Made by a program: the position numbers and the translations under genes. The notes beneath the pieces are model-generated. The model worked only from the letters and a program-made list of their open reading frames with translations. It did not search any database and was not told the DNA's origin. A stretch of 64,000 nucleotides of DNA, taken from positions 26,554 through 90,553 of the forward strand of contig DATKZA010000121.1 in the NCBI GenBank assembly GCA_035528155.1. Reading direction: 5' to 3'. Shown here in pieces: positions 8,497-55,811 of the stretch; positions within the stretch are counted from its first letter, which is position 1, and every line of letters starts with the position of its first letter. The DNA is from Patescibacteria group bacterium (GTDB lineage: Bacteria > Acidobacteriota > Aminicenantia > UBA2199).

Positions 8497-11400
8497 ATGG
8501 TACTTCACGCACAAATTGCAAATTCCGCGCCCCTCCCTTATAATGCCTGCATGGGGTTTGGCAAAAGACTCGAAGCGGGCTATTTTTTCAGTGTGCCGGA
8601 CTTTGCCGATCCGGACAAGAACCTGGCGGCCCGGCAGATTTTTGTCATCGTAAGGGCATTCTTCGTGTTCGCGGTTTTGCTGCAGCTCCTGCAGGTCGCC
8701 CTGGACCCGAAAATAACCGTGCGCTGGTTTGTGTTGTTTTGTGCCACTTTCGCGGTCAGCGTCATGTTGCTGGAACTTGCCAGGCGCGGCCATGTCCGTC
8801 TGGCTTCCTTCCTGCTGGTGTTGAACTTGTGGCTGCTGGTCGGCGTATTCGCCTGGACGAGGATCGGCCTGGGGACGCGGGCCGCCTACGGCTATTTCAT
8901 CGTTGTTTTCATCGCCGGCATGGTGCTGGGCAGGTGGCCGGGGATCATCACGGCGGCGCTTTGCAGCGCTTCGACACTGGCCATCGCCCTGGCGGCTCCG
9001 GTGGCTTCGTCCGACCCCGTCCGCTTCTGGCTGGTCAACTCGTTTTACCTGCTGATCGTGCACCTGCTGCAGAACCTGTCCTGGCGCTCCATAAGGGAAT
9101 CCCTGGTCAGGGCCCGCAGCGAATTGCGGGAACGGCAGCTGGCTGAAACCGAGCTGCGCAGCAGCGATGAGCGATTCAAACAGCTGTCTTCGCTCACCTC
9201 GGAAGGAATTGTGATCCAGGCGGATGGCATCATCCTGGACGCGAACCAGGCATTCGCAGAACTTACAGGCTACGCAAACTCTGACCAGCTGATTGGGAAG
9301 AATGGCCTGGAGATCATTTCATTTACAGCGGAATCGCGAAAACGTGTGTTCGCCCATATGAGCAATCACTCCACCGAAACTTACGAAGTCGAAATTATCA
9401 AGCCGGACGGTTCATTGCTTTCAGCCGAGACCCATGGCAGGGAGATCAACTATCTTGGACGCCAAGCGCGCCTCGTCTCCATGCTTGACATCACCAAGCG
9501 CAAACAGTCGGAGGGTGAATTGCAGGCACGTGAGAATTTGCTCAGCAGTATTTTTCGCGCTGCTCCGACCGGGATTGGCGTGGTGAACAACCGGGTTTTA
9601 ACATTAGTCAATAGCCGGATTTGCGAAATGATCGGCTGGACTCAGGAAGAACTGATCGGCAAAAGCTCGCGGGTTCTCTACGTCAGTGATGCCGATTTTG
9701 AATATGTGGGAAAGAAAAAGTACCGGCAGATCGCTGAACGAGGCACGGGGACGGTGGAAACGCGCTGGCAGTGCAAGGATGGTCGCATCATCGATGTGCT
9801 GTTGAGCTCCACTCCGATCAATCCGTTGGATCAATCCGCCGGAGTGACGTTCACCGCTCTGGACATTACCGACCGCAAGCAGGGAGAGGAAAAACTGCTG
9901 GAGAGCGAGCGGCGTTACCGGACGCTTTTTGAATCGGCCGGTGATGCCATTTTCCTTCTGCATGGGGACCGGATCATTGACTGCAACTCCAAAACACTGG
10001 AGGTGTTCGGTTGTGGCCGTGAACAAATGATCGGTCTGCCCATATCGCGATTTCATCCAGCCCAGCAGCCCGACGGCAGAGATTCGCTGGTTATAGGCAA
10101 GGAGAAAAACACGGCGGCCCTGACCGGAGGCTCGCAATTTTTTGAATGGCGGCATGTCCGCTTCGATGGTGCTCAGTTCGATGCCGAGGTCAGACTGAAC
10201 CATATCCAACTGGTCGCCGGAGACTTTTTACTGGCCCTGGTACGCGACATTTCCGAACGCAAAAAACTGGAAGAGCAGTTGCGCCAGGCGCAGAAAATGG
10301 AAGCCATCGGCATCCTGGCCGGAGGCGTAGCCCATGATTTCAATAATATCCTTTCGACCATCGTCGGCTACACTTCCCTTTTGCAAATGAAGCTGAAAGC
10401 CGATGATCCGTTTAAAGAATACATCGAGCGCATCCTCTCCGCCACCGAGCGGGCGGTGAACCTGACCAGCAGCCTTCTGGCTTTCAGCCGCAAGCAGGAG
10501 ATCGAATTGCGTCCGCTTGACATCAATGACACCATTTACGGTTTCCACAAGATCCTGGCGCGGCTGATCGGGGAGGATATCGATTTCCACCTCGACCTGG
10601 CCAGCCAGACCCTGGTGGTGGACGCCGATGTCCGCCAGATCGAGCAGCTGCTGATGAACCTGGCCAACAATAGCCGCGACGCCATGCCCCGGGGAGGCAA
10701 GCTGACCATCCGCACCGATGCCGTCGTTTTAACGGAGACACGCGCCGAGATTCCCGCCGGATCCTATGCCGTCGTAACGGTTACCGACAGCGGCTCGGGC
10801 ATGACCATGGATGTCCAGGCGCACATCTTCGAGCCCTTCTTCACCACCAAGGAAGTGGGCAAGGGGACCGGGCTCGGAATGGCCATGGTTTACGGCATCG
10901 TCAAAAAGCACAACGGCTTCATCCACATGGCCAGTACAAGCGGAGCGGGGACCACTTTCAGCATCTATCTGCCCTTGAAGGCGCAAACCGTAAAAAAAAC
11001 AGCGCGCCGCAAGCAGGAAAAAATCCCGGCCGGGAGCGAAACCATTCTCCTGATCGAGGACGATGCTGCCGTCCGCCAGGTGACCCGTTCCATGCTCGAG
11101 GAATTCGGCTACACCGTGCTGGAAGCGGCAAACGGGATCGAAGCCCAGACCGTGTTCCAGCGGCAGCGGGACCAGGTCCAGCTGGTCTTATGCGACCTGA
11201 TCATGCCCAAGATGAACGGCCGCGAAACGTACGCCGCGCTCCAAAAAATCAAGGGCGATATCAAGGTGGTCTTCATGAGCGGCTATACCGCCGATATCAT
11301 CGCCGGCAAGGGCATCGCCGATCCCGGCGTCCAGCTGCTCCAGAAACCGCTGAACCCGTCGACTCTGCTCAAGAAAATCCGCAGTGTGCTGGACAAATAA
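8497..11400 (+). CDS. Hybrid sensor histidine kinase (membrane N-terminus, multiple PAS domains, HisKA, HATPase_c, C-terminal receiver)
   Basis: H-box [16 protein letters not shown] boxes ([25 protein letters not shown]), receiver D in [13 protein letters not shown]. Confidence 0.85.
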
Positions 11401-14005: not shown

Positions 14006-16033
14006 ATGATGGATAAAATCGGCAAATACACGATAAGCGGCGAAATCGGCAAGGGCGGCATGGGGGTGGTCTACCGCGGCCTGGATCCCGTGATCGGCCG
14101 TTCCGTGGCCGTCAAAACCGTCCGCCTCGATATCCTGAGGGGGGAGAGCGGCAGGGAAGACGCGCTCAAGCGCTTCCTGCGCGAAGCCCAGGCGGCCGGC
14201 AATCTCTCCCATGCCAATATCGTTACCATTTACGATGTCGGCGAACACGAGGGGCTGATCTATATTGCCATGGAGTTCATCGACGGCTGCAGCCTGGAGC
14301 AACTGCTGCAGCAGGAAAGGAAATTCACACTGCAAGAGATCACCCATTTGTTCAGCCAGATCGGCTCGGCCCTGGATTACGCCCATGGGAAGGGGATCGT
14401 CCACCGCGACATCAAGCCGGCTAACATCCTGGTCGGGCGGGACCTCAAGGTCTCCATCGTCGATTTCGGCATCGCCCGTACCGCCGCCTCGACCATGACC
14501 CAGACCGGCATGCTCATGGGGACACCGCGCTACATGTCCCCCGAGCAGATTGCCGGAAAAAAGGTGGACAACCGTTCTGACATTTTTTCCCTGGGAGCCA
14601 TCTTGTACGAGCTGTTGACCCAGCACAATCCCTTCGCAGGCGAGAGCATTACCACCGTCATTTACAAGATCATGCACGCCGAACTTCCCCCGCTCAGCGA
14701 TTTCAACAAGCAGCTGCCGGCCGGCCTGGAAGGCGTGGTCAAAAAGGCTCTGGCTCGCGACGCCGACGCCCGGTATCACAGCTGCGGCGAACTGCTTGCC
14801 GACTTGAAAAAATACGCTTTGGCCGTTCCGCAAGGCGCCACGGTCAGGGAAAGCAATTTTTACGACCATGATACGCAGCTTTTGGAAGTTGCCGGGAACA
14901 CGGTTTTTTCCGCGCCGCGCCGCCGCCGGAAACCGCTGTTGTTTTTGACGGCGTTGCTGGTCGGATTGCTGGCCGCCGCCCTTTTTGTCTTCTGGCCCGG
15001 GAGGCGAACGAATGTTCTTCCTTCCCCTGAAGGCGGTGAGATTTCCCGGCCGGCAGCCGCCCAGGAAAACAGCGGGACCGCGGGCCGCGATGTCGCTCCC
15101 GATCAAGCTGCGGTTGACACGTCCGGCCCGGACGGCCTTTTGCCTGGAGGCGAACCGGAGCCGGCCAAGAAGACCGACACCCTGCCGGCTGCCGCTGGGA
15201 CCGGTGTCCGGCCCGGGGCGCCCGTTGAAAAGCCGCTTGCTGAAATTGCCCAGGCGCAAAGCGTTGCCGGTGGGATTCAGGATGAAAGATCGCGCGCCGA
15301 GGCCGCAGCTGCCAATAAAAAAGGCTTCCTGGAGCGGGTTTTTTTCAACGGCACGGTTATGGTACAGGTCCGCCAGGGCAATTTTACCATCGGTTCTCCC
15401 AGGGGGGAAGGCGACGCCGACGAACATCCGGCCCACAAGATATTCATCAGCGATTTCTGGCTGGGAAAAACCGAAGTGACTTTTGAGCAGTTCGATTTAT
15501 TCTGTCGTGAAACCGGGCGCAGCCTGCCAAGCGATGAGGGTTGGGGCCGGGGCAGCCGGCCGGTGATCAATGTTTCCTGGGACGACGCGGACAGCTACTG
15601 CCGCTGGCTGGCGCAAAAAACCGGCCGCAACTTCCGCCTGCCGCGCGAGGCCGAATGGGAGAAAGCCGCCCGCGAAAAGTATCCCTGGGGCAGGAGCTCT
15701 CCAAGCGCAAACCAGGTCAACATGAAGGGCAAGGCGGACGGTTTTGCCTTCACCGCCCCGGTCGGCTCGTTTGCTTTAGGAGAATCGCCTTACGGCATCC
15801 TGGACATGGCCGGGAACGTCTGGGAATGGATGGCCGACTGGTACGACCCCGGCTATTACCAGGCAGCGGCCGGCCGCGACCCGCAAGGTCCGGCCGCGGG
15901 CAAAGACCGGGTGGTACGCGGCGGTTCCTGGAGAGACGGATTGGAGCTGATCCGTTCCGCCAACCGCAGCAGCGAGCGTCCGGAGCGGCGCCTGAACGTG
16001 CTGGGCTTCCGCGTGGCCATGGACTACCGCTGA
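14006..16033 (+). CDS. Hanks-type Ser/Thr protein kinase fused to a C-terminal formylglycine-generating-enzyme (FGE/SUMF1) domain
   Basis: Kinase motifs GxGxxG, VAVK, HRDIKPANIL, DFGIA, SPE; TM helix; C-terminal FGE-sulfatase region ending RGGSWRD...VLGFRVAMDYR. Confidence 0.85.
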   Translation: MMDKIGKYTISGEIGKGGMGVVYRGLDPVIGRSVAVKTVRLDILRGESGREDALKRFLREAQAAGNLSHANIVTIYDVGEHEGLIYIAMEFIDGCSLEQLLQQERKFTLQEITHLFSQIGSALDYAHGKGIVHRDIKPANILVGRDLKVSIVDFGIARTAASTMTQTGMLMGTPRYMSPEQIAGKKVDNRSDIFSLGAILYELLTQHNPFAGESITTVIYKIMHAELPPLSDFNKQLPAGLEGVVKKALARDADARYHSCGELLADLKKYALAVPQGATVRESNFYDHDTQLLEVAGNTVFSAPRRRRKPLLFLTALLVGLLAAALFVFWPGRRTNVLPSPEGGEISRPAAAQENSGTAGRDVAPDQAAVDTSGPDGLLPGGEPEPAKKTDTLPAAAGTGVRPGAPVEKPLAEIAQAQSVAGGIQDERSRAEAAAANKKGFLERVFFNGTVMVQVRQGNFTIGSPRGEGDADEHPAHKIFISDFWLGKTEVTFEQFDLFCRETGRSLPSDEGWGRGSRPVINVSWDDADSYCRWLAQKTGRNFRLPREAEWEKAAREKYPWGRSSPSANQVNMKGKADGFAFTAPVGSFALGESPYGILDMAGNVWEWMADWYDPGYYQAAAGRDPQGPAAGKDRVVRGGSWRDGLELIRSANRSSERPERRLNVLGFRVAMDYR

Positions 16034-16749
16034 TGGCCGCCCTCACCTCGCTGCATGCCCTGATCGAAGCCCTGAGGGACGGAGCGCCGATCAACAAGGT
16101 TCTGCTCAACCGCTCGCGCCAGGACGCGAAGATGCGCACCGTGATCGAGTTGTGCCGCCGGCGCGGCGTGATCTTTCAGCTCGTCCCGGCTGAAGCCGTC
16201 GACCGCAAGGCCGGCGTCAGGAACCAGGGCGTATGGGCCGAGATCGCGCCCGTCGGTTTTGTTTCCCTCGATTCGCTGCTGGCCGCGGTCAAAACCGGCC
16301 TGGTCGTGATCCTGGACGGCATCGAGGATACCGGCAACCTGGGGGCCATCGTGCGCAGCGCCGCCGCCGTGGAAGCCGACGGGATTCTGGTCTCCATCCG
16401 CGGCTCGGCCCCGGTCAACGACACCGTCTGGAAGACCTCGGCCGGGACCCTGGGGAAAGTGAGCCTGGTCCAGTCGCGCAACCTGGCCATGGATATCGAG
16501 AAATTGAAAAAAGCCGGTTTCTGGGTGGTGGCGGCCGACCAGCGCGCCGGCATAAATTTTTATGACTTTGATTTCAAGGGCAGAACCGCCGTGATATTGG
16601 GAAACGAAAGCAAGGGGGTCTCGGCCCTGCTGAAAAAAAATGCCGACCAGCTTCTGGCCATTCCCCATTCGCCGGCCGTGGAATCGCTCAACGTGTCGGC
16701 CGCGGCGGCCATCATGCTGTTCGAGGCCTATCGGCAGAAGAACAAGTAA
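16033..16749 (+). CDS. rlmB: SpoU/TrmH-family rRNA 2'-O-methyltransferase (RlmB-like); start overlaps the kinase stop (TGATG)
   Basis: SpoU methylase motifs LDGIEDTGNLGAIVRSAAA, AVILGNESKGVS, LNVSAAAAIMLFE. Confidence 0.8.
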   Translation: MAALTSLHALIEALRDGAPINKVLLNRSRQDAKMRTVIELCRRRGVIFQLVPAEAVDRKAGVRNQGVWAEIAPVGFVSLDSLLAAVKTGLVVILDGIEDTGNLGAIVRSAAAVEADGILVSIRGSAPVNDTVWKTSAGTLGKVSLVQSRNLAMDIEKLKKAGFWVVAADQRAGINFYDFDFKGRTAVILGNESKGVSALLKKNADQLLAIPHSPAVESLNVSAAAAIMLFEAYRQKNK

Positions 16750-16903
16750 CCTGGGTTCCGGGGAACAGCGAAAACCAAAAAGCAGGGCTCGAAGTTCGAC
16801 GTTGGAACGCCATAGACGAAATCCAAGCCTCGCAGCCAGCGGGCAGGCCTGCCCTGAGGGAACAAATATTTTTAATAAACAAAAATTCTGTTATAATCAA
16901 GAC

Positions 16904-17296
16904 ATGGCGAAAAAAGGCTTTACCCTGATCGAGCTGCTGATCGTGGTCACCCTGATCGGCATCTTGGTGGCGATCATGGTGCCGCAGTACAAGTATTCGG
17001 TTTTGCGGGCCAAGGAGGCGGTCCTGAAGGAGAACCTGTTCCAGTTGCGGGACGCCATCAACAAGTATTATTTCGACAAGAAAAAGTATCCGGCCAGTCT
17101 TGACGACCTGGTCACGGCGCGCTACCTGCGCGAGGTCCCCTTTGATCCCATCAGCAAAAGCAGTGAATGGGAGTTGATCCGGACCGAGCCCCTGGAGGAC
17201 GAGGAATTCGATCCCGAGGCCGACCAGGGCATTATCGACGTCAAATGCCTGTCCAAGGCCACCTCCATGGACGGCACGCCCTATGCCGATTGGTAG
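16904..17296 (+). CDS. Type II secretion/type IV pilus pseudopilin (GspG-like) with a prepilin N-terminal methylation motif
   Basis: MAKKGFTLIELLIVVTLIGILVAI is a classic prepilin peptidase site G|FTLIE; extended -10 TGTTATAAT immediately upstream. Confidence 0.75.
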   Translation: MAKKGFTLIELLIVVTLIGILVAIMVPQYKYSVLRAKEAVLKENLFQLRDAINKYYFDKKKYPASLDDLVTARYLREVPFDPISKSSEWELIRTEPLEDEEFDPEADQGIIDVKCLSKATSMDGTPYADW

Positions 17297-17305
17297 GGGG
17301 CGGCG

Positions 17306-17824
17306 GTGAAAAAACGGCCTTTTGCCGGCCGCGCCGGCTACGTCATGATCGTGCTGATGATCGCCGTGGCGGTGCTGAGCGTGTTCATGCTCATGGCCGT
17401 GCCGCTCTGGCAGACCATGATGCAGCGCGAGGCCGAGGAGGAGCTGATCTTCCGCGCCCGCCAGTACGTCAGCGCCATCGGCTTTTACGTCAAAAGCCAC
17501 AACAACCTCTACCCGCAGAATTTCGAAATCCTGCACCTGGAAAAATTCCTGCGCCGGCTCTATCCCGATCCGGTCAGCGCCGACGGTCGTTGGGACATGG
17601 TTTTCAAGGATACTACCGGCGGCGAGGCCAAATACCTCGTGGTCCCGGCCCACCTGGCCCAGGCCTATTTCAGCCGGGCCGTGCTTGTGGGCGTATGCTC
17701 CACTTCCCCGGAAACGGCTTTCCGCGAATATCGCGGCAAAAAGAAATACAATGAATGGGCTTTTTACCTGGGTGAAAAGGAAAACGAGAAAATGCCCGAG
17801 CTGCAGTACGAGGGCGGCCAGTGA
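17306..17824 (+). CDS. Prepilin-like protein lacking the conserved Glu+5 (minor pseudopilin-like); GTG start
   Basis: Leader MKKRPFAGRAG|YVMIVLMIAVAVLSV resembles a prepilin N-terminus but has V at +5. Confidence 0.45.
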   Translation: MKKRPFAGRAGYVMIVLMIAVAVLSVFMLMAVPLWQTMMQREAEEELIFRARQYVSAIGFYVKSHNNLYPQNFEILHLEKFLRRLYPDPVSADGRWDMVFKDTTGGEAKYLVVPAHLAQAYFSRAVLVGVCSTSPETAFREYRGKKKYNEWAFYLGEKENEKMPELQYEGGQ

Positions 17825-18945
17825 AGAACATCCTGCTGGTGGCGGCCGAAAATTCGGCCGAAACCTACGCCGTGCAGGTCCTGAAGGAATTTCAGGCCCG
17901 GGGCGACCACTTCCATTTCTGGGGAATTGGCGGCGACCGCCTGGCCGCCAACGGCTTTGAAAACCTGGTGCACAACCGCTCGCTGTCGGTGGTGGGCATC
18001 GTCGAGGTCGCGGCCCACCTCTTGCGCATCCGGCGGGTGCTGAACCTGGTCCTGCGCCGGGCGCGGGAACGCAAAGCCGACGCCGCCCTGCTGATCGACT
18101 ATCCCGACTTCAACCTGCGCTTGGCCCGCCGCCTGCGCCGGGCCGGTATCCCGGTTTATTACTACATCAGCCCCACGGTCTGGGCCTGGCGATACGGCCG
18201 GGTCGAGCAGATCCGCCGCTGGGTGAGCCGGCTGTTCATCATTTTTCCTTTTGAAGTGCCCATTTACGAAATGGAAAAGGTGACCTTCACCTATACCGGC
18301 CATCCGCTCCTGGCCGAGGTGCGGGTCAGCGAACCGCGAGAGGAATTCCGCCGCCGCCACGGCGTGGCCGCCGGCGACATCCTGCTGGCGCTGCTGCCGG
18401 GCAGCCGCGAGGCCGAGGTGCGCACGCTGCTGCCCGAGATCATGGGAGCCGTGCGCCGCCTGCAAAAGGAATTTCCCCTGAAAGTGTTTCTGCAGAAAGC
18501 GCAGAATATTCACCAGGAGCAACTGGCCGCGGTCGACCCGGATATCCGCGTCCTGGACCAGGAACAGGGCTTCGACCTGCTCAACGCCGCCGACGCGGTC
18601 ATCACCACTTGCGGCACTTCCAACCTGGAGGCGGCCTTGCTCGGGGTCCCTTTTGTCGCCGTGTACCGCGTCAACCGCCTGACCTACCTGCTGGGCAGGC
18701 GCTTTGTCAAGATCGGTCTATATTCCATTGTCAATATCCTGGCTGGGCGCCAGGTTGCGACCGAGCTGATACAAAAAGAGTGCCGGACCGGGCGCATTTA
18801 TGAGGAAACCAAAAAGATCCTGGACGATCCCCGGCTGCGGGAAGAAATGCGGCGAGAGTTCCGGCGCATCAAGGATAGCCTTAGCCAGGAAGAGAAACCC
18901 GCCGTCATCATCTGCCGCCAGATCGGCGCCGACCTGGAAGGGTGA
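17821..18945 (+). CDS. lpxB: Lipid-A-disaccharide synthase; GTG start overlapping the upstream stop (GTGA)
   Basis: Full-length similarity to LpxB (GT19): MKNILLVAAENSAE...LLIDYPDFNLRLA... Confidence 0.85.
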   Translation: MKNILLVAAENSAETYAVQVLKEFQARGDHFHFWGIGGDRLAANGFENLVHNRSLSVVGIVEVAAHLLRIRRVLNLVLRRARERKADAALLIDYPDFNLRLARRLRRAGIPVYYYISPTVWAWRYGRVEQIRRWVSRLFIIFPFEVPIYEMEKVTFTYTGHPLLAEVRVSEPREEFRRRHGVAAGDILLALLPGSREAEVRTLLPEIMGAVRRLQKEFPLKVFLQKAQNIHQEQLAAVDPDIRVLDQEQGFDLLNAADAVITTCGTSNLEAALLGVPFVAVYRVNRLTYLLGRRFVKIGLYSIVNILAGRQVATELIQKECRTGRIYEETKKILDDPRLREEMRREFRRIKDSLSQEEKPAVIICRQIGADLEG

Positions 18946-23603: not shown

Positions 23604-23806
23604 TTCATGGCAGTATCTGCCCGGGATCAATTCATCCTCCGGCCCCTTCTTTTGCGAAGAGATGGGAATCTAGGGGCACGGCGCGCCGTGCCCCTACGAT
23701 AGCCAAAGAGAAGGGTTGCGGGTGAGCTTGCTTTTAAGATTCCTATATGGGATTGGAATGAGTTTGCTTGGTTTACGAATCCCCGATTTAATGGTATATT
23801 TCACGA

Positions 23807-26197
23807 ATGACCGCCAAAACCCGGATTTTCATTTTATTTTTGTTCCTGATATGGATTGCCGCTTTGCCGGTCTTTGGTCAGGACACAGATGATGATAACG
23901 AGTTCATCATCTCAAGTTTCATGCTCGAGCGCTTGCCGGGCGGATATTTTTATCCGAATTTTTTTGAAAACTTGGCTCCGGACGCTACTTTCCTGATCGA
24001 GGAAAGCAATGGTTTCGCCCAACTTGATTTTCCCAAGGTTTATTTTGAAGGCGATTCTTATTCTCAGTTCAACTGGTTTTTTAACGGTTTTTCGATCAAC
24101 TCGGCCCTGGATGACGGTGCCCCGGCTTTCCAGCTGCCCTTTCTGACCATTGACTCTATGGCTTTGCAAAGCGAAACTCCCCAGCACCGCGACTATGGAT
24201 TTCATTTCCGTCTGCGCTCCCCGGTTGTAACCCGTTCACGGCTGATGGTTTCTTCTGTCTTTCCCAATATGGGCGGCTATACGGCACTGGGGAAAATGGC
24301 TATCGGCAACCATGCCAGTCTCAGAGCCGATAACCTGTACAGCGGCCGCCGGCAAATTTCCGGAAATCAAGCGTTTGATTACTCTTGGGAAACGAAATCG
24401 CCGCATTCTTCCTTTTTGCTGGGCCTGAGTTATTTCAATCAGGAACGCCGCTTCAACGATTTCAATTTCCGTGATGCCCAGTTTGCTGAAAAAGGCAACC
24501 TGCTGCAGCTTCTATCCCGCTGGCAAAGAGCATATGCCCGGGGAGTGCTTGATTTGTCCCTGGCGGTGAATGGCATCCGGCGCGACCGTTTATTTGCTGA
24601 GGAAGGGCGCTACCCCCAGGAAACCTATGATTTGGATAAAAAAACCTGGTTTGCCGGGGTTTCCTGGCAGGGCCGGCCGTTAAATTTTAGATTTTCCTGG
24701 CAGCTGGAATGGGAAAGACGGACACCAACGGTTCTGGACGCCGGCAAGGATTTGCAAGACATTGATGGGCAGGGATTTTATCCTTTTGAGAAGTGGGGTG
24801 ATTTTGGGGCAAATACCCTGGCTTTAGTTATCGATCAAAAGTATTCTTTTTCTTTACTGGGGGAAAAAGTCGAATTTGAACCTTTCCTGAACCTATCAGC
24901 CGTTCTTTTATCAGCGGCCGAACAAACCGGGTCAAGCAACGCCCTGTATTTCTCCAACCAGCCTTACCAGGTTATCGAATGGCAGAAAGGCGCTGAATAC
25001 CGCAATCAACGATTTCTGGGAACAGGTGGAGCTGAGTTGGCAATAACGATGGCTAGGAAAATCACCCTTAATGCCCGGCTATTTTTCCAATATCAGGAGC
25101 TTGTATTTGGGACGGCGCGCAATAATAGCCGTTTTTCCCAACCAGGTGGCGAACTTGGTATCACTTGGTTCGCTAATATCAAAACCAGGATTTCATTATC
25201 TTATGGCATTCTGCCTTATGAATTGCGAGCCAATGTCAGCGATTTCCTGGAAGACCAGCGTCCCGGAGCGTCCATTTTTTACTGGAATGATGACAACAGC
25301 GACGGCCGCTTCCAGAACCAGGAAAAAGGCGCTTTATTCGGTCAGGTCGGCGGTCCCAGCCATTTCCTTTCTCCGAATTTGCAACCGCCTCAACGGGAGC
25401 GCATCCTGCTGCAGCTGAACACTCGGCTCTCAGCCAATTTCAACCTTAACATCAAGGGACTCTACAAAAAAATCCGCCAACCCATATGGACATATTTCTC
25501 CGATAATTATGGCTATTACGAAGAGGTTGCCGGCCAGAATTACTATTTTTTCGACCGCCCGTTCAGCGCTTTTAAACTGGATAATGCCGCCTTTGACAAA
25601 GATCCGTTTTATGCCCAGTTGCTTATTCAATTGCAAGGACAAAAACTTCAGCGCTGGTTTTTTTCATTTTCTTTCCTGGCCCATATAGGCATGGGCTATA
25701 CTGCTTTTGGTAACGGTCCAACCGCCAATGATATCGGTATCATTTCCGAAAGCCAGGCTTTTCCGAATGCCTGGATCAATGGCTATGGGCGTGTCGACGG
25801 CGATCGGGCTTTCGTCAGCAAGATTTTTTTTGGTTACTATTTATCACGGCGTTTATTTCTGAGTGCCAGCATCAAATATCGTGACGGTAATCCGTTCGCT
25901 TTTATCAATGCTTTTAAGAAAAATGACCAATGGATCATCACCTACCAGACCATCAAGGCTGAGGATAAATATGGCAAAAAAGGCGGTCCAAGAGAGGATT
26001 GCCTTTGGGATTTCAATTTTAAATTCGGTTATGAGATTTCTTTGTTCGGTAAAAAAGGCCGTCTGGAACTTGAATTGTTCAATCTTCTGGATTTTGGCCT
26101 CGAATTGTCAGAAAATGTTTTTTCCGGCAGCAGCCGCCTGGCCAACGAACTGCAGCTGCCGCGCAGTTTGCGGCTGGGCCTGGTCCTGGAGTTATAA
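23807..26197 (+). CDS. Large hypothetical secreted/outer-membrane protein (796 aa); no recognisable domain
   Basis: Signal peptide; Gly/Tyr/Phe/Asn-rich with beta-strand-like alternation; GC visibly lower than neighbouring genes. Confidence 0.45.
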   Translation: MTAKTRIFILFLFLIWIAALPVFGQDTDDDNEFIISSFMLERLPGGYFYPNFFENLAPDATFLIEESNGFAQLDFPKVYFEGDSYSQFNWFFNGFSINSALDDGAPAFQLPFLTIDSMALQSETPQHRDYGFHFRLRSPVVTRSRLMVSSVFPNMGGYTALGKMAIGNHASLRADNLYSGRRQISGNQAFDYSWETKSPHSSFLLGLSYFNQERRFNDFNFRDAQFAEKGNLLQLLSRWQRAYARGVLDLSLAVNGIRRDRLFAEEGRYPQETYDLDKKTWFAGVSWQGRPLNFRFSWQLEWERRTPTVLDAGKDLQDIDGQGFYPFEKWGDFGANTLALVIDQKYSFSLLGEKVEFEPFLNLSAVLLSAAEQTGSSNALYFSNQPYQVIEWQKGAEYRNQRFLGTGGAELAITMARKITLNARLFFQYQELVFGTARNNSRFSQPGGELGITWFANIKTRISLSYGILPYELRANVSDFLEDQRPGASIFYWNDDNSDGRFQNQEKGALFGQVGGPSHFLSPNLQPPQRERILLQLNTRLSANFNLNIKGLYKKIRQPIWTYFSDNYGYYEEVAGQNYYFFDRPFSAFKLDNAAFDKDPFYAQLLIQLQGQKLQRWFFSFSFLAHIGMGYTAFGNGPTANDIGIISESQAFPNAWINGYGRVDGDRAFVSKIFFGYYLSRRLFLSASIKYRDGNPFAFINAFKKNDQWIITYQTIKAEDKYGKKGGPREDCLWDFNFKFGYEISLFGKKGRLELELFNLLDFGLELSENVFSGSSRLANELQLPRSLRLGLVLEL

Positions 26198-48292: not shown

Positions 48293-51200
48293 CTAGAAAG
48301 CGAACTTGATGCCCAGCGTGGCTTCCAGGGGGGGCAGGAAGCGGTAGCCCATGCCGAAGCGCGGGTCGAGCTGCTCCACTCTGGACTTGACGTCGACGCC
48401 ATCCAGGAGGTCCTGGTCGCTGATAAAGACGTCATCTCTGTTGTAAAAGCTGAGCAGGCGCTGCGCCGTCTTGGCGTCGGTCACGTTGCGGACGTTGAGT
48501 GAGAATTCCAGGTTGTTCTTGCCCAGTTTCAGCGCGTACTCGGCGTAGAAGTCGGCGGTGACGGTGAAGGGGGAGCGCAGGCCGGTGTCGAAGCGGTTGT
48601 AGGGGTAGTAGCCCTGCTGGCCGTTCACCTGGATCTCGGTCGACAGCGGCTGGCCGGAGTAGGCATTCACCACGCCGCCCAGGGTCACGCCAAAGGGGAA
48701 AACGTAGGAGGCATAGGCCTTGAGGTAGTGGGGGCGGTCGGTGTTCATCTTGCCGGCGATCGGCTTCATGTACTGGTCGTAGGAAGTCATCCACAGGTCG
48801 AAGTAGCGGTTGACGTTGGGATCGTTGCGCTCAGCCTCGTCGGAGCTGTTCAGGCCGGCGTAGTTGCCGGTCAGCTGGCTCCAGGTGTAGGAGAGGCCGC
48901 CGAGCCAGTTGTCGCTGAAGCGCTTTTCCAGGGAGAGGTTGACGGCATAGTAGTCGCGGGTGGCCTTCTGCGGAGCAGGGATCCCGGCGGGCAGAATGCC
49001 GTTCGAAATGGCGATATCGTACTGGTTCTTCACGTAGTCGCTGCCGGGATTGGCGATGAAATAGGTCTCGCCCTCGGGCATCAGGATGCCGATGTCATCG
49101 ATCGCCCACAGCAGCTTCTTGTTGACCAGGCGCACAGAAAGGGACAGGTCGTCGTTGATCTTCTTTTCCAGGCCGAAGGAAATTTCGCGCTGGGACATGG
49201 GCTTCATGTCGGGGTCGGTCTCGTTGATCGAGGGGATGCGCCAGTTCTTGTTGCCCAGGTACAGGCCGGGGAAATTGCCGTTGACGCCGATCTGGTCCCA
49301 GTTGGGGGTATCCAGCTCATAATATTCGCTGATCCAGACAAAGCCGCCGTAGGAGCCTTCGGGCAGGGCGAGCTTCATGCAGTCCTGGAAAATGCCGAAG
49401 GCGCCGAACACCTTCAGGCTGGAGTCGCCGAAGACGTCGTAGATGAAGCCCAGGCGGGGGGCCAGCTTGTCGCCCCAGCCGAAGTCCAGGGGAACGATGT
49501 CCTTGAATTCAGGCAGGGAGCTGAACGCCGGCACCTGTTCCTTTTCGGCGCGCAGCCCGAAGTTGAGGGTCAGCTTGTTGGCGATGGTCCAGGAATCCTG
49601 GAGGTAGAATGCCCAGCGGTTGGACCTGGCCTTGTCGATCATCTGGCCGAAGGGGGTGCGGTTCTCATAGTAGCCGTACTTGCCGAGCCAGCCGGCATCC
49701 ACCGGGCTGCCCGGGATCTGGTTGGGGAAGGCACGGCCGACATAGAGCCTGATAACCGGGACCGGGGAAGTGCCGTTGTAGTCGTCCATGATCTGGTTGT
49801 AGGCAAAGCCGGCCTTCCAGGAGTGCTCGCCGGCCAGGTTCATGAAGTAGTTGACGTCGATGTTGGCGCTGGTGCGCGTGTAGTTGGCCTTCGACAACTT
49901 GTAGAAAAGGCCCCAGGTGTAATTGGACCAGCCGTAATTGCGGACCTTGTCCTCCGGCCAGCCGTAGGCGGCTTCACCGCCCGCATTGTACGTGAAATGC
50001 TGATAGTAGATCCCCGGGGGGTCCATGACCGAGGCGTCGTTCTGGTTGTAGTAGCCGAAGCGGCCGGACACCTGCAGATTGTTGCCGATGGTATAATCCA
50101 GGTTGGCGGAGGTGGACCAGGTCGGGGAGTTCTCGCCCATCTGGTCATAGGTGAAGGTGGAGCTTCCGATCGTCTGCCAGTCGGGGAAGTTGGTATTGGG
50201 GTCATCGCCCGGCAGGCCGCCGCGCCATTGGTTGTTGTTGGCGATGAAGGAGGCCGACAGGCGCATATTCTTGATCGGCTCGGCCGACAGCTTGATCGAG
50301 CCGTTCATCCATGTGTCCTTGCGCTCGTACGAGGTCAGCGGGGCGCCGGCCACTTCGTCGAAGTTGACGTCGCGGTTGGTCTGGCGATACACAGGCAGGA
50401 AGGAGCCGAAGAACCACAGCTTGTCCTTGAGGATGTAGCCGCCCAGGCTGAGGCCGCCCTCCAGGCGTGAGAAATCCTGATTGCTGAAGTTTTCGTAATT
50501 GAAATACTGGGCTACGGTCGGATCGTCCGGCTTCAGGCGCAGCACGTCGCGCATCTTGCCGCGCAGGGCGCTGCCCTGGAAGTAGCCCATGACCTCGCCG
50601 TGGAACTGGTTGCCGCCCGAGCGCGTGACCACGTTGACCACGCCACCCATGGAGCCGCCGAACTCGGCCTGGTAGCCCGAGGCCTTGACCTGCACTTCGT
50701 CGATGAAGTCGAAGGCGGCCTGCATGCGCTGCTGGGCGCCGCGCACTTCGCCGGTCTCCATGCCGTCGACGTAGAAGACGTTCTCGGCGCCGCTGGCGCC
50801 GTCGACCGACAGGCCGCCGGTCATGGGCTCGTTGTAGACGCCGGGGACGGCCGTGACCAGGGTGCTGAAGTCGCGCCCCTTGGGCAGGTTGTTGAAGAGC
50901 TCCTTGGTCAGGGTCATGCCCTTGGCCGTGCTCTTGACGTCGATCAGCGGCATCTCCCCGGTGATGGTGATGACCTCGTTCAGGTTGCCGAGCTTCATCT
51001 CGATCTTCAGGCTGGCGGTCTGCTCGGCGACCAGCGGGATGTTTTCCCGCACCACGGTCTGGAACCCCTCCAGGGTGAACACCAGCTTGTAGGTGCCGGG
51101 CGTTAAATTCAGAAGCCTGAAGGTGCCGTTCTCGTCGGTGACCGCCGTCGCGTTGCCGACCAGCTTGGGGCTGGTGGCTTCGATGCTGACGCCGGGCACC

Positions 51201-51322
51201 AATGAACCGTCTTCAAGTTGTACCGTGCCGAAGATCTTGGCAGTGGTCTGCTGGGCGCTCAGCATTCCCGCGAGCAGGAGCACGCTGAATGCCAGCAGGG
51301 TGAACCTTTTGACAATACTCAT
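48293..51322 (-). CDS. TonB-dependent-like outer-membrane receptor with an N-terminal carboxypeptidase-regulatory-like domain (1009 aa; real start MSIVKRF at 51322)
   Basis: Signal peptide; TAKIFGTVQLEDGSLVPGVSIEATSPKLVGNATAVTDENGTFRL CarboxypepD_reg fold; plug-like region; 22-strand-scale barrel; C-terminal LGIKFAF; AAGGAGGA RBS. Confidence 0.8.
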   Translation of the reverse strand: MSIVKRFTLLAFSVLLLAGMLSAQQTTAKIFGTVQLEDGSLVPGVSIEATSPKLVGNATAVTDENGTFRLLNLTPGTYKLVFTLEGFQTVVRENIPLVAEQTASLKIEMKLGNLNEVITITGEMPLIDVKSTAKGMTLTKELFNNLPKGRDFSTLVTAVPGVYNEPMTGGLSVDGASGAENVFYVDGMETGEVRGAQQRMQAAFDFIDEVQVKASGYQAEFGGSMGGVVNVVTRSGGNQFHGEVMGYFQGSALRGKMRDVLRLKPDDPTVAQYFNYENFSNQDFSRLEGGLSLGGYILKDKLWFFGSFLPVYRQTNRDVNFDEVAGAPLTSYERKDTWMNGSIKLSAEPIKNMRLSASFIANNNQWRGGLPGDDPNTNFPDWQTIGSSTFTYDQMGENSPTWSTSANLDYTIGNNLQVSGRFGYYNQNDASVMDPPGIYYQHFTYNAGGEAAYGWPEDKVRNYGWSNYTWGLFYKLSKANYTRTSANIDVNYFMNLAGEHSWKAGFAYNQIMDDYNGTSPVPVIRLYVGRAFPNQIPGSPVDAGWLGKYGYYENRTPFGQMIDKARSNRWAFYLQDSWTIANKLTLNFGLRAEKEQVPAFSSLPEFKDIVPLDFGWGDKLAPRLGFIYDVFGDSSLKVFGAFGIFQDCMKLALPEGSYGGFVWISEYYELDTPNWDQIGVNGNFPGLYLGNKNWRIPSINETDPDMKPMSQREISFGLEKKINDDLSLSVRLVNKKLLWAIDDIGILMPEGETYFIANPGSDYVKNQYDIAISNGILPAGIPAPQKATRDYYAVNLSLEKRFSDNWLGGLSYTWSQLTGNYAGLNSSDEAERNDPNVNRYFDLWMTSYDQYMKPIAGKMNTDRPHYLKAYASYVFPFGVTLGGVVNAYSGQPLSTEIQVNGQQGYYPYNRFDTGLRSPFTVTADFYAEYALKLGKNNLEFSLNVRNVTDAKTAQRLLSFYNRDDVFISDQDLLDGVDVKSRVEQLDPRFGMGYRFLPPLEATLGIKFAF

Positions 51323-51366
51323 TTTGTTTGTCCTCCTTTTTTTATTTGACAAAACATCCAAGGTGT

Positions 51367-51382
51367 TGCAAGTTCCATGCCA
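51367..51382 (-). promoter_or_regulatory. Sigma-54 (-24/-12) promoter TGGCAT-GGAAC-TTGCA upstream of receptor gene 1
   Basis: Coding strand CTTGGCATGGAACTTGCAACACC; GG-N10-GC spacing exact; about 45 nt upstream of the ATG. Confidence 0.55.
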
Positions 51383-51689
51383 AGGGAAGCGGATGGTTTG
51401 AAAACAGCCTGGGGAATTTTTAGTGAACCTGAAAAACTTGAATGGAAGAGGGTTTGCCAGCCAGGACAGGTCGCGGAGAACATTCACCGCAAAGAGTCTT
51501 TTCTTTTTTATTGCCCCTAAAAAATACAAATTATTAATTTTTATTTCAAAAAACAATTAAAAACTCAATTTATTGAACTGCGGATAAGGACTGGCCGGAA
51601 AAATATTGCGCTGATTGAAAAAAAAACTCCTCAAAAAGCATTGGCCGGGCCTGGTTCAAGAAAAAGCGGGTTTGCCTTTTGCTGCTTTC

Positions 51690-51718
51690 TTGTCAAGCGG
51701 AACGGGTAGTGTTATAAT
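51690..51718 (+). promoter_or_regulatory. Sigma-70-like promoter TTGTCA-17 nt-TATAAT upstream of GWxTD gene 1
   Basis: TTGTCA 51690-51695, TATAAT 51713-51718; the ATG at 51725 lies 6 nt downstream (possible leaderless start). Confidence 0.4.
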
Positions 51719-51724
51719 AAATTA

Positions 51725-53815
51725 ATGATGATCAATTCAGTAAGTGCAGTGAGGCCGATGATGAAAAAATTGCTTGTGGTTTGCAGCGTTCTGATTTTTT
51801 GCTTTTCACTTCATGGCGAATCCGAGAAAGAACTCATAAAAAAACTTCCACCGCCACACCGCGTCTGGCTCACGGAAGAGGTGGTATACATTATTTCCTC
51901 TGTTGAAAAGGAAGTTTTCTTGCAGCTTGAATCCGACCGGGAACGCGACACCTTCATCAGCGCCTTCTGGAAACAGCGCAATCCCACTCCCAACCTGCCG
52001 GAAAACGAATTTAAAAAAGAGCATTACCGCCGCCTGGCCTATGTCAACAACTGGTTCGGCAAGGATTCCCCGGCCCCGGGCTGGCGCACCGACCAGGGCC
52101 GTATCTACATCACCCTGGGTGAAGCGCATTCGATCGAACGTTACGAAAGCGACAACGACCTGGTTCCTACCGTGGTCTGGTTCTACCAGGGCATGGCCGC
52201 CAAGGGACTTCCCGATTCCTTCAACGTGGTTTTTTTCAAGAAGGACGGCATGGGAGAATATGAGCTCTATTCTCCCGTCAAGTACGGTCCCCAAGCCTTG
52301 ATGCGAAACTTCGAGGGCGATGCCACTTCTTATGAGGCGGCCTATTATGCCCTGCTGGATATACAGCCCCAGCTGGCTACCGTCTCTCTCTCACTGATCA
52401 CCGGTGAACCGCTGGGCGTGAATCCCTCCATAGCCTCGGAGCTGCTGATCCGGCAGAAGATCCCTGAAACCCCGCAGCGGAATATCAAGAATATTTACGC
52501 CAGCAATTTCCTCAAGTTCAAAGGGCAGGTCGAGATCGACTACGCCGACAATTTCATGGAGAGCAGTTCCCAACTCAATGTTGTCCGCCACCCATCCGGG
52601 CACTATTTCATCCATTACCTCATCGAACCCAAGCGCCTCTCCTTTGAACAATACAAGGAGAAGTATTACACCACCCTGGAAATTTCCGGCAATATCTCCG
52701 ACCCTTCCGGAAAGATGCTCACCCAGATCTCACGCCGCATTCCCCTTGAATTGAGTGAAAATCAGATGCGCATGGTCAAGGACAAGCTTTTCAGTTTTCA
52801 GGACATGATCCCGGTCATCCCTGGAAGTTATCGCCTCACCATTTTCCTTAAAAACCTTACCACCAAGGAATTCACATCCCTGGAAAAGGATTTTGTCATC
52901 CCCGACCGGGAAAAATTGGCGATCTCGACGCTGCTGCTGGCCAACCGCAAGGCCGCCGCCGCGAGCAGTGTTGTCATCAAACCTTTTATTTTCGACGGCA
53001 GCCACCTTCTACCTTCGCCGCGCAACGATTTTCTCGCGGCCGACAATCTGGAACTCTTTTTTCAACTCCACGGCCTGAGCGGGGACTTGATACGGGCCGG
53101 CTCCCTGGAAATATCCCTTTTCCGCCGCGGCGAAAAAGTTTTCACCAAGGAACGGCTGCTCCGCGATCTTGGCTCTCTGCCCGACGTGCTGGAAACCCTG
53201 CCACTGAAGGGTCAATCCCCTGCTTACTACAATCTCAAGGTGTCCCTGCTTGACCAGAAAAAAAGCGAGATCGCGACCAAAAACGCCGATTTCTACATAA
53301 CGCCGCAACCCTCCCTGCCCCGACCCTGGGTCGTTTCCGTGCCCACAGCTGTCGGCGATTTCAGCGTCTTTCTTAACGAACTTGGACGCCAGTACGTTCA
53401 GAGCGGTGATCTTGATAAGGCCCGGCCCCTTCTGGAATCGGCTTTCCGGCAAAACCCCGACAGCGTCCGCTTCGGCGGCGATTATTGCCAACTGCTGCTG
53501 CAGAAAAAGGAATTCGCCAAGGTCAAGGCCCTGGCCCTGCCCCAGGTCAAGGAAAAATCCCGTTTTGAATTCGCCCTGCCCCTGGGCCATGCCTGCCAGG
53601 GCTTGAACGAATTCAACGACGCCATCGCTTTCTACGCGGACTTCATCACCCATTTCGGGGCCAACATCAATGTCTTCAACCAGATCGGCGAGTGTTATTT
53701 TCAGCTGGGCAATGCGGCGGAAGCCCTGAAGGCCTGGGAAAAATCATTGGAACTCAATCCCAAGCAGCCGCTCATCAGGGAAAAAGTCGCTGGTTTGCAG
53801 AAAACCGCCAAATGA
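51725..53815 (+). CDS. GWxTD-domain protein with C-terminal TPR-like repeats (alternative start MMKKLL at 51758)
   Basis: Signal peptide; FWKQRNPTP...EFKKEHYRRLAYVNNWF...GWRTDQGRIYITLGEA matches the GWxTD domain signature. Confidence 0.75.
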   Translation: MMINSVSAVRPMMKKLLVVCSVLIFCFSLHGESEKELIKKLPPPHRVWLTEEVVYIISSVEKEVFLQLESDRERDTFISAFWKQRNPTPNLPENEFKKEHYRRLAYVNNWFGKDSPAPGWRTDQGRIYITLGEAHSIERYESDNDLVPTVVWFYQGMAAKGLPDSFNVVFFKKDGMGEYELYSPVKYGPQALMRNFEGDATSYEAAYYALLDIQPQLATVSLSLITGEPLGVNPSIASELLIRQKIPETPQRNIKNIYASNFLKFKGQVEIDYADNFMESSSQLNVVRHPSGHYFIHYLIEPKRLSFEQYKEKYYTTLEISGNISDPSGKMLTQISRRIPLELSENQMRMVKDKLFSFQDMIPVIPGSYRLTIFLKNLTTKEFTSLEKDFVIPDREKLAISTLLLANRKAAAASSVVIKPFIFDGSHLLPSPRNDFLAADNLELFFQLHGLSGDLIRAGSLEISLFRRGEKVFTKERLLRDLGSLPDVLETLPLKGQSPAYYNLKVSLLDQKKSEIATKNADFYITPQPSLPRPWVVSVPTAVGDFSVFLNELGRQYVQSGDLDKARPLLESAFRQNPDSVRFGGDYCQLLLQKKEFAKVKALALPQVKEKSRFEFALPLGHACQGLNEFNDAIAFYADFITHFGANINVFNQIGECYFQLGNAAEALKAWEKSLELNPKQPLIREKVAGLQKTAK

Positions 53816-53867
53816 GACCGTCTAATATAATGCCGGAGACCGGCAATTCAATATGGAGGTTAGCAAG

Positions 53868-54827
53868 ATGAATAGAGATTACAAAAAGCCTTGGTGCGTC
53901 CTGGCCTGTGTCCTGGTCGTTTCTTCACTCACTTTTGCCCAGGCCGGCCGCGGCAAGGGGCGCCTGAGCGGCAACGTGGTCGACGAGAAGGGCGAACCCA
54001 TCGTTACTGCGGAAGTGAAGATCGAGTTCGAGAAAGGCGGCCTGGTGGACAAGACCACGGTCAACAAGAAGGGCGAATGGAGCTTCATCAGTCTGGGAAC
54101 GGGCCAGGCCATCGTCACCGCTTCGGCGGAAGAATTCCTGGACAGCAGCCTGAACATTCACGTGCAGCAGCTGGAACGCAACAAGTTCGTCACCCTGGTC
54201 CTGAAGGAGGACAAGGAAAAAAAGATCCGCCTCAAAGATGCGGGCGCGCTGGAGGAATTGGAAAAAGGCAACCAACTTTTCCAGGAACGCAAGTTCGACG
54301 AAGCCTTGCAGATCTATCAAACCTTCGCTAGCGAAAACCCCAAGGTTTACCAGATCTATTTCAATATCGGTGATGTCTACCGCGAGAAAGGTGAATTCGA
54401 CAAAGCCAACGAGCAGTACGCCATGGCCCAGGTCAAGGCCAAGGAAAAGGCTGATGTCGTCCTGCAGGCCAGGGCCCTGGCCTCGTTCGGCGAGATCTGC
54501 CTGAGGCAGGAAAAATTCAAGGAAGCCCAGGAATTCTTCACCCAGTCGATCGCTCTCAACCCCAAGGACGAGATCCTGGCCTACAATGTGGCCGAGATAT
54601 TTTTCGGACGCAACCAGACCGACAAAGCCATCGAGTATTACCTGCTGGCCATTCAGATAAAACCCGAGTGGAGCGAGCCCTACCTGAAATTGGGCTATGC
54701 CTATCTGAACAAAGGCGACATGGCCAAGGCGGTCGAATATTTGAACGGCTTCCTCACCCACGACCCCGAATCGCCCCAGGCGCCGGTGGTCCAAAGCCTG
54801 ATCGAATCCCTGACCAAGGCCAAATAA
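53868..54827 (+). CDS. Secreted TPR-repeat protein with an N-terminal carboxypeptidase-regulatory-like domain (alternative start 53853)
   Basis: Signal peptide; GRLSGNVVDEKGEPIVTAEVKIEFEKGG CarboxypepD_reg-like; then at least 5 TPR units; GGAGG RBS before 53868. Confidence 0.7.
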   Translation: MNRDYKKPWCVLACVLVVSSLTFAQAGRGKGRLSGNVVDEKGEPIVTAEVKIEFEKGGLVDKTTVNKKGEWSFISLGTGQAIVTASAEEFLDSSLNIHVQQLERNKFVTLVLKEDKEKKIRLKDAGALEELEKGNQLFQERKFDEALQIYQTFASENPKVYQIYFNIGDVYREKGEFDKANEQYAMAQVKAKEKADVVLQARALASFGEICLRQEKFKEAQEFFTQSIALNPKDEILAYNVAEIFFGRNQTDKAIEYYLLAIQIKPEWSEPYLKLGYAYLNKGDMAKAVEYLNGFLTHDPESPQAPVVQSLIESLTKAK

Positions 54828-54829
54828 CC

Positions 54830-55500
54830 AGTAGGGGTTTGATGAATCAAACCCCTACCTATTCACCCATCCCCTCTCTTTCAAAATGAGAGGGGAGTGC
54901 TGTTTTCCCCTTCTCTTCCCAAGAGAAGGGGGTAGGGGATGAGTTGGGAGCATTCAGAAAATTTGTTTGTTTTAGATATCTCTCAGAGATTGAGTTAGGA
55001 AGGAAAAACTCACCCCCATCCCCTCTCTTTTAAAATGAGAGGGGTTTTTTTTTCTCTCCCGGGTTCGGCATGGAGGGAGAACGGCTATTAATACTGATAT
55101 TATATATATGGAAACCCCTTTCGGAGCGAATTGAGTATTCTGGTGGTTTATCCAGGGACGTATACGGAATACTGAACTCACCCCCTGACCCCCTCTCTTC
55201 CCAAAGAGAGGGGGAAGTGCAATTATGGCTGATGAAGCCCTTTCTCTTTACCAATCACTAATCACCAATCACGAATAACGAATCACGAATTGCGGGGGGA
55301 TGAGTTAAGAGCACGATTATCCTGACATTAGAACAAGCCAGCACAAGTTGGATCATTCGTAACGCGTAACACGTAACGCGTGACGAGAAAGAGAAGATGT
55401 CGAGGTTTGAGGTTCGAAGTAGAAGAAAAGATCACAAGGAAATTCCAGATGTAGGGGTTTGATTCATCAAACCCTTGCAGTCAGGTAATATTCTTCTGAG
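54830..55500. repeat. Non-coding island packed with short palindromic repeat units and hairpins (REP/MITE-like family shared with 672-775 and 18946-19185)
   Basis: Units cccctctctttcaaaatgagagggg, ccccttctcttcccaagagaagggggtaggggatgagtt, cccctctcttttaaaatgagagggg, ccccctctcttcccaaagagaggggg; CAATCAC tandem repeats at 55245-55295; palindrome GTAGGGGTTTGATGAATCAAACCCCTAC at 54833 with an imperfect copy at 55446. Confidence 0.55.
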
Positions 55501-55740
55501 TCTGGATTGATATCTGCCTGGGGCAGGGAACGCAGATCGATCTGCGTTCCTTCAGAAGAAAACCTATCATGCTTTTGTTTAGAATATTAGAACTTGGAAT
55601 TTATTTGGAATTTTCTTAAGTACGGGAGGGTTTCACCCCCTGAAGGGGGCACGAACCCTCCCCTACATTCCTCTCCCCCCATACCCCTCTACCTCTCGAA
55701 CTATTCCCTCGTCCCTTACTGCCGGGGGGCGATCTACGGG

Positions 55741-55786
55741 CAAAAAAAAACCCCGCCCCCCGAAGGGGGCAGGGTCTTTTAAGTCC
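55741..55786 (-). terminator. Strong rho-independent terminator downstream of receptor gene 2 (bidirectional hairpin; U9 on minus, UCUUUU on plus)
   Basis: caaaaaaaaaccccgccccccgaagggggcagggtctttt; 25 nt past the gene 2 stop at 55812. Confidence 0.65.
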
Positions 55787-55811
55787 GCTAATTTAAACGA
55801 TTAGCCGACGT

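Follow-up and report, generated by a model that had tools for sequence, protein, structure and literature searches.

A pilin-like gene pair directly upstream of lpxB

The window analysed here is a 64,000-nucleotide (nt) stretch of contig DATKZA010000121.1, assigned to the class Aminicenantia of the Acidobacteriota. On its forward strand lie two short genes, here called gene 1 and gene 2, which encode pilin-like proteins and directly precede lpxB, the gene for lipid-A-disaccharide synthase (Table 1). Conservation of the proteins, of their gene order and of the promoter geometry points to a displaced set of subunits of a type IV filament machine, expressed together with lpxB.

A preliminary description of this DNA had proposed an orphan two-gene pseudopilin cassette with an extended -10 promoter and an apparently leaderless first gene. 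Reading of the sequence places both genes, the 4-nt overlap of gene 2 with lpxB (GTGA) and the promoter element TGTTATAAT exactly where that description had put them. Nine intergenic bases separate gene 1 from gene 2, the two genes share a reading frame, and the third gene matches the LpxB models well above threshold (TIGR00215, 257 bits against a cutoff of 190; Pfam LpxB, 295 bits, E 8.9e-88). A longer in-frame open reading frame (ORF) at 16640-17296 (218 amino acids, aa) was rejected as a version of gene 1, as it overlaps rlmB and the homologues of gene 1 are nearly all exactly 130 aa long; the "CYN" codons within this ORF arise because the TGnTATAAT promoter is read in frame. At 17294-17308 only the TAG stop and three codons lie between gene 1 and gene 2 in their common frame, and a 267-aa metagenome protein (P0088), which combines an N_methyl match with a match to 67% of gene 2 at 81% identity, looks like a fusion of the two genes or a read-through call.

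Table 1. Features of the pilin-like locus, with positions numbered from the first nucleotide of the window.
Feature	Position	Strand	Details
Extended -10 element TGTTATAAT	16889-16897	+	Read from sequence; TG at -15/-14 and TATAAT at -12 to -7 relative to the A of the gene 1 ATG
Spacer CAAGAC	between TATAAT and the gene 1 ATG at 16904	+	Read from sequence; 6 nt
Gene 1, GspG-like prepilin	16904-17296	+	130 aa; ATG start; TAG stop at 17294-17296
GGGGG, Shine-Dalgarno-like run	17295-17299	+	6 nt 5' of the gene 2 GTG; first two bases shared with the end of the gene 1 stop codon
Gene 2, pilin-like	17306-17824	+	172 aa; GTG start at 17306; TGA stop at 17822-17824
GAGGG, Shine-Dalgarno sequence for lpxB	17810-17814	+	Within the 3' end of gene 2; 6 nt 5' of the lpxB start
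lpxB, lipid-A-disaccharide synthase	17821-18945	+	374 aa; GTG start; third gene of the putative operon
rlmB, upstream neighbour	ends at 16749	+	Stop 154 nt 5' of gene 1

Signal peptides and folds of the two proteins

The N-terminus of gene 1, MAKKG|FTLIELL, consists of a 5-residue leader with predicted cleavage before F6, a Glu at position +5 and a Pro at +22. The complete class III signal peptide, MAKKG|FTLIELLIVVTLIGILVAIMVP, is recognized by the Pfam N_methyl model (E 3.9e-7) and is the only prepilin motif found in the window. Across 22 aligned sequences the Glu at +5 (E10) is invariant, as are 47 alignment columns overall. The structural model has the long N-terminal alpha-helix on an antiparallel beta-sheet that makes up a pilin fold, and its best structural matches are EpsG and PulG, the major pseudopilins of type II secretion systems (T2SS).

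Gene 2 departs from this pattern at position +5. Its N-terminus, MKKRPFAGRAG|YVMIV, has an 11-residue basic leader with predicted cleavage before Y12 and again a Pro at +22, with Val at +5 (MKKRPFAGRAG|YVMIVLMIAVAVLSVFMLMAVP in full). In a set of 48 family members the Gly at -1 is present in every one, position +1 is Y, F, V or A, and position +5 is V, L, A, M, T, S, I or F and never E or D; the distant members from other Acidobacteriota likewise lack an acidic residue there. G-1, the hydrophobic alpha1N segment and P22 are kept in the families of both genes. The gene 2 model (pLDDT, the predicted local distance difference test, of 84) consists of a 56-residue N-terminal helix followed by a beta-sheet in a pilin-like fold, and in the family profile Y12 aligns with residue 1 of mature gonococcal pilin. 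The alignment contains 19 invariant columns, with an invariant QRE-EEELIFR-RQY motif and a C-terminal block GVCS...Y.EWAFY...MPEL. The second gene is therefore prepilin-like, as had been proposed, in both its modelled fold and the absence of Glu+5 across its entire family.

Profile searches are less generous. When gene 2 was compared with hidden Markov models of pilins and pseudopilins, a check that the preliminary description had suggested, nothing was found above threshold even though the predicted fold is pilin-like: there is no Pfam family, for gene 2 or for eight members of its family including distant ones, and NCBIfam returned only sub-threshold N-terminal matches to ComGE (22.7 bits, cutoff 49) and PpdD. 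The family is nonetheless large, with 5,587 representatives at 50% clustering (exhaustive profile search, E <= 0.001), and its members carry inconsistent database names (PulG, FimT/FimU, GspH or none). Relatives from outside the Aminicenantes (P0260, P0263, P0276, P0282 and those at loci L084-L087) have the helix region set apart from the C-terminal GV.S.S...Y.EW block by long low-complexity inserts rich in Gly, Pro and Gln, and their tails are of a similar kind; the Aminicenantes proteins end instead in a conserved MPELxY segment.

Homologues of PilK "invariably lack Glu at +5" and are assigned a tip position in the filament (PMC13533445). The preliminary description had regarded loss of this residue as the mark of GspK-type proteins that are much larger than gene 2. 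The large size holds for GspK itself, but the whole PilK family, including the smaller PilX and ComGG, is without Glu+5 (PMC13533445), and because this absence is a property of the entire family the size of gene 2 is not anomalous. By analogy, gene 2 is a putative apical, PilK-like cap subunit, functionally closest to GspK, PilX and ComGG.

Conservation of the gene 1-gene 2-lpxB order

The nearest homologues of both proteins come from metagenome-assembled genomes and metagenomes of Candidatus Aminicenantes (OP8; class Aminicenantia, Acidobacteriota). Scanning one genome per GTDB species yielded 388 stretches with a relative of gene 2, of which the best 79 loci were analysed. Gene 1 lies directly 5' of gene 2 in every one of these loci that has enough upstream sequence, and lpxB lies directly 3' of gene 2 in 73 of the 79, down to approximately 34% identity in gene 2. 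LpxB identity across the conserved triad falls to about 35-40%, and the triad is retained where the genes on both flanks differ; six species have the pilin genes without a following lpxB.

Deep-branching Aminicenantes carry three pilin genes at this locus, in the order pnp, gene 0, gene 1, gene 2, lpxB. Gene 0 encodes a third GspG-like pilin (148-172 residues past the cleavage Gly, with the motif GFTLTEMLVT) and sits between pnp and gene 1, some 900 nt 5' of the gene 2 match, in loci L046-L083 (for example, L064 5082-5590 and L068 5045-5530). It is missing from the locus in the clade of the window, where gene 1 and gene 2 stand by themselves. Disrupted copies were seen in one place only, a 1.7-Mb contig of a long-read assembly (contig_20254; L002/L023 9552-10468), where both pilin genes and lpxB look frameshifted (gene 1 called as 150 aa with an aberrant C-terminus, gene 2 as 155 aa and lpxB as 329 aa), probably through assembly indel errors rather than as pseudogenes.

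An extended -10 promoter and a probably leaderless gene 1

The region ahead of gene 1 is conserved in a highly selective manner. Among 31 distinct upstream sequences from the two-gene clade of the window, TGnTATAAT followed by 6 nt and an ATG is present in all 31, with ATG as the start codon throughout, C at -1 in 24 and T enriched at -17, while ungapped identity over positions -60 to -17 is approximately 27%. The 20 nt leading up to the gene 1 ATG contain no GGAG-like run; genes 2 and 3 (lpxB), by contrast, each have a Shine-Dalgarno sequence 6 nt upstream. A scan for two-hexamer -35/-10 promoters gave no match and no -35 element is recognizable, as expected of a promoter of the extended -10 type. 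The 154-nt intergenic region contains no Rfam family and its folding is unremarkable, with a z-score of -0.13.

With a -10 hexamer at -12 to -7, transcription by definition starts at the A of the ATG. RNA polymerase favours a pyrimidine/purine dinucleotide at the start site, which is what the C at -1 in 24 of the 31 sequences provides. The gene 1 mRNA is thus probably leaderless, with A16904 as its predicted first nucleotide, and the leaderless start that had been proposed from a single sequence gains strong comparative support.

The placement of this element is not chance. The window contains 16 TATAAT hexamers on its two strands, and for four of these a long ORF begins with an ATG 6-7 nt further on. 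A TATAAT or TGnTAnnnT sequence likewise stands 6-7 nt ahead of the ATG at the long ORFs starting at 8551, 23807, 51725 and 61316 (elements with starts at 8539-8553, 23792-23809, 51710-51727 and 61303-61318; TG extension in two of the four), which encode a PAS histidine kinase, a 796-aa unknown protein, a GWxTD/TPR protein and an M1 peptidase, respectively. These four suggest, on sequence grounds, that this genome makes frequent use of leaderless starts; in the case of the histidine kinase and the peptidase, a leaderless start would put the true start downstream of that of the longest ORF. Fourteen more cases of this geometry were found in related loci. In three Acidobacteria genomes, 9.7-19.4% of genes are predicted to be leaderless, with TANNNT approximately 12 nt upstream of the start (Zheng et al., PMC3160421).

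An alternative is that gene 1 is not leaderless at all, its transcript beginning further upstream or by read-through from rlmB and carrying a 5' untranslated region without a Shine-Dalgarno sequence, translated for instance with the help of ribosomal protein S1 at an A/U-rich leader, with the TATAAT kept for some other reason. The region 5' of the ATG is indeed A/T-rich and could support such initiation, and the rlmB stop lies close by on the same strand with no convincing intrinsic terminator found between rlmB and gene 1. An A/U-rich enhancer would nevertheless need no invariant hexamer in a fixed register, and what is conserved here is only the TG, the TATAAT and the exact 6-nt distance, the remainder being at random-level identity. 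The upstream neighbour gene also varies between species, the start codon is always ATG and the base before it is mostly C. In a few further loci the geometry is the same except that the spacer is 7 nt or the hexamer is TAATAT or TAGTAT, and in the three-gene clade, with its extra pilin gene ahead of gene 1, the motif is absent before both gene 0 and gene 1 and purine-rich Shine-Dalgarno-like runs take its place. A longer leader as the regular form of this transcript is accordingly an unlikely explanation, and a leaderless gene 1 remains the better account of the conserved junction.

Orthologues in complete machinery clusters of other Acidobacteriota

Genes for a T2SS or type IV pilus (T4P) machine were sought around the cassette. 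A Pfam scan of the 28 largest ORFs of the window found none. When the flanks of the same 104,059-bp contig (ENA ERZ27256828 k141_2656148) were added and record positions 17,307-97,794 inspected, no gene for an ATPase, platform protein, secretin, PilM/N/O or prepilin peptidase was found over these ~80 kb. Translated searches (tblastn) with an acidobacterial ATPase C-terminus, PilM, PilN/O/P-like proteins, a secretin and a Big_1 protein gave no match in the window or in the 79 loci with 6 kb on either side. Our search of the literature on pili and secretion in Aminicenantes yielded nothing usable.

A different arrangement emerged in four loci from other Acidobacteriota (L084-L087). Here a T2SSE ATPase, PilM_2, a PilN-like, a PilO/T2SSM-like and a PilP-like protein and a secretin are followed by a pilin of 155-161 aa, a second pilin of 132-139 aa, a Big_1/PKD lipoprotein and a gene 2-like protein. 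Identity to the Aminicenantes counterparts is 47-59% for the two upstream pilins and 34-37% for the gene 2-like protein, and the neighbours in these clusters are pilMNOPQ-type genes rather than gspC/L/M. The cassette of the window is consequently an orphan by position only: no machinery gene was found in the ~80 kb around it, in line with what the preliminary description had said of its vicinity, but its orthologues belong to complete ATPase-PilMNO-secretin clusters elsewhere.

The Big_1/PKD lipoprotein genes lie between the orthologues of gene 1 and gene 2 (L084 6466-7983, L085 5585-6850, L086 7039-8001 and L087 8205-9971 (- strand)) and have no counterpart at the Aminicenantes locus. A role for their product as cargo or at the filament tip is conceivable. 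The idea of a tip adhesin, in which this lipoprotein would supply a C-terminal strand in the manner of the MPELxY segment of gene 2, was dropped, its C-termini being without such a motif.

A probable displaced pseudopilin module

We consider it likely that gene 1 and gene 2 constitute the displaced pseudopilin (filament-subunit) module of a type IV filament machine encoded elsewhere, carried in a leaderless operon with lpxB. That the cassette is a displaced module is indicated by its orthologues at the end of full acidobacterial clusters and by the three pilin genes of the deep Aminicenantes clades, and we infer a partner machine because the features needed for processing and assembly are strictly conserved. 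Both genes would stem from a T2SS-like or type IVa pilus (T4aP)-like filament machine ancestral to the Acidobacteriota, and in the Aminicenantes the pseudopilin module would have parted from the ATPase-PilM/N/O/P-secretin genes and moved in front of lpxB, with gene 1, gene 2 and lpxB now forming a single operon. Transcription would start at 16904 from an extended -10 promoter that is independent of a -35 element, and ribosomes would initiate directly at the 5'-terminal AUG of gene 1. For gene 2 and lpxB, translation would rely on the Shine-Dalgarno site of each gene, with the GTGA overlap coupling lpxB to gene 2. A prepilin peptidase would cleave both proteins, after which gene 2, presumably unable to make the Glu5 contact with a preceding subunit, would take the apex of a short filament and prime its assembly. 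Gene 1 would then polymerise beneath it, powered by an ATPase and platform encoded elsewhere. The simplest view of the linkage to lpxB is that an old rearrangement has been kept in place by the promoter that the genes share, a functional link to envelope synthesis being conceivable.

Several observations weigh against this interpretation. The partner machine is assumed, as no ATPase, platform, secretin or peptidase came to light in the ~80 kb of contig or around the 79 loci. Canonical T2SS or T4aP systems have five pilin-like genes; there are two here and three in the deeper clades, and no GspI- or GspJ-type genes were seen beside gene 2 at any locus, where a K-type cap normally needs such partners. 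The best NCBIfam match of gene 1 is GspG (TIGR01710), at 50 bits and thus below the cutoff of 88.85, and the alignment covers only residues 4-69 of the protein and model positions 1-66 of 134. Of the earlier designation of gene 1 as a GspG-like major pseudopilin, the likeness is fair, given the class III signal peptide and the structural matches to EpsG and PulG, but the identification as GspG is not established. A longer gene 1 mRNA from an upstream promoter is possible as well.

The constancy of the gene order invites a reading in which the two periplasmic proteins, anchored in the inner membrane, have been recruited away from filament assembly and act alongside LpxB in the biogenesis of the envelope or of lipid A. 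The retention of the triad in 73 of 79 species despite its sequence divergence and its differing flanks, the overlapping or very tight gene 2/lpxB junction and the lack of machinery nearby would all suit such a role. LpxB acts at the cytoplasmic face of the inner membrane, however, and the globular domains of pilins are periplasmic. The six species whose pilin genes have no lpxB after them, and the orthologues in other Acidobacteriota that reside in a type IV filament cluster with no lpxB adjacent, likewise speak against it. Moreover, G-1, the Glu+5 of gene 1 and P22 are invariant and matter only for prepilin peptidase and filament assembly, and an operon shared with an essential gene can keep its order with no functional link. 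We therefore regard an envelope role as quite improbable. That the cassette is a functionless, decaying remnant of a lost secretion system, to which the lack of machinery in the ~80 kb inspected and the loss of one of the three pilin genes from this locus in the clade of the window might point, is scarcely credible given that both ORFs are intact in ~80 species, that 47 and 19 alignment columns are invariant in gene 1 and gene 2, that signal-peptide features and promoter are conserved and that the only disrupted copies, in one long-read assembly, resemble frameshift errors.

Significance of the locus

The cassette is real and well conserved, and it belongs to known kinds, namely type IV filament subunits and leaderless mRNA; current understanding of pilins and of leaderless translation is unchanged by it. 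What is mildly new is the large and unclassified pilin-like family without Glu+5 and the class-wide operon fusion with lpxB. The locus offers that family a working assignment, in which its members are putative cap pilins that keep a conserved partner in the genome and close an acidobacterial type IV filament cluster. It also illustrates that "orphan" pilin genes can be displaced modules, held here by an operon shared with an essential gene, a possibility to bear in mind when gene clusters in metagenome-assembled genomes are used to call secretion systems. The perfectly conserved junction of extended -10 element and ATG lends itself well to tests of leaderless expression in a lineage not yet in culture.

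A bolder extension would be that the Aminicenantes, and perhaps the Acidobacteriota generally, build a minimal endopilus of two or three pilins, one or two of them GspG-like, in which a cap from the previously unclassified family without Glu+5 (at least 5,500 clusters at 50% identity, absent from Pfam) replaces the entire GspH/I/J/K tip complex. We hold this to be a speculative and rather unlikely proposal; if it were true, the class-wide fusion into the lpxB operon might reflect co-regulation of secretion or pilus capacity with the synthesis of outer-membrane lipid A.

Other genes of the contig

Directly 5' of rlmB, at 14006-16033, lies a gene for a Ser/Thr protein kinase with a fused C-terminal FGE-sulfatase (formylglycine-generating-enzyme-like) domain. 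A cluster at 48293-61241 encodes two CarboxypepD_reg/OMP_b-brl_4 outer-membrane proteins that resemble TonB-dependent receptors, two GWxTD-domain proteins and several TPR proteins. Beyond the end of the window (L092 1-4127; ~93.7-97.8 kb of the contig record) are genes resembling those of a group 4 membrane-bound [NiFe] hydrogenase or of complex I, a set that includes Oxidored_q6, Complex1_30kDa, NiFeSe_Hases/Complex1_49kDa, NADHdh, Fer4 and the HycI maturation protease.

Comparison with known filament systems and leaderless mRNAs

Gene 1 is best compared with the GspG proteins of the T2SS (EpsG, PulG and XcpT; TIGR01710), from which it differs in sitting outside any gsp operon and in being preceded, in the deeper Aminicenantes and in other Acidobacteriota, by a second GspG-like paralogue of ~155-173 aa. 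Gene 2 resembles the PilK family (GspK/XcpX, PilK, PilX, ComGG and MshP) in its pilin fold, its class III-like leader ending in Gly, its hydrophobic alpha1N and its lack of Glu+5, and its size is comparable to that of PilX and ComGG. It differs from GspK, PilX and ComGG in scoring above threshold in none of their models, and the alpha-domain insertion of GspK, roughly 180 residues, is absent from its 172 aa.

With respect to expression, the predicted start of gene 1 is like those of the bacterial leaderless mRNAs known from Actinobacteria, Deinococcus-Thermus and Acidobacteria (PMC3160421), with a -10 element at -12 to -7, no Shine-Dalgarno sequence and a TG extension in place of a -35 element. 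There is no difference in kind, and the distinguishing feature is the 100% conservation of TG and TATAAT over 31 sequences.

The closest parallel to the locus as a whole is the pilMNOPQ-type cluster of L084-L087. Unlike at the Aminicenantes locus, the pilin genes there adjoin those for the secretin, the ATPase and the PilM/N/O/P-like proteins and have no lpxB next to them, yet the orthologues of gene 1 and gene 2 come in the same order and are accompanied by the extra pilin of the deep Aminicenantes clades.

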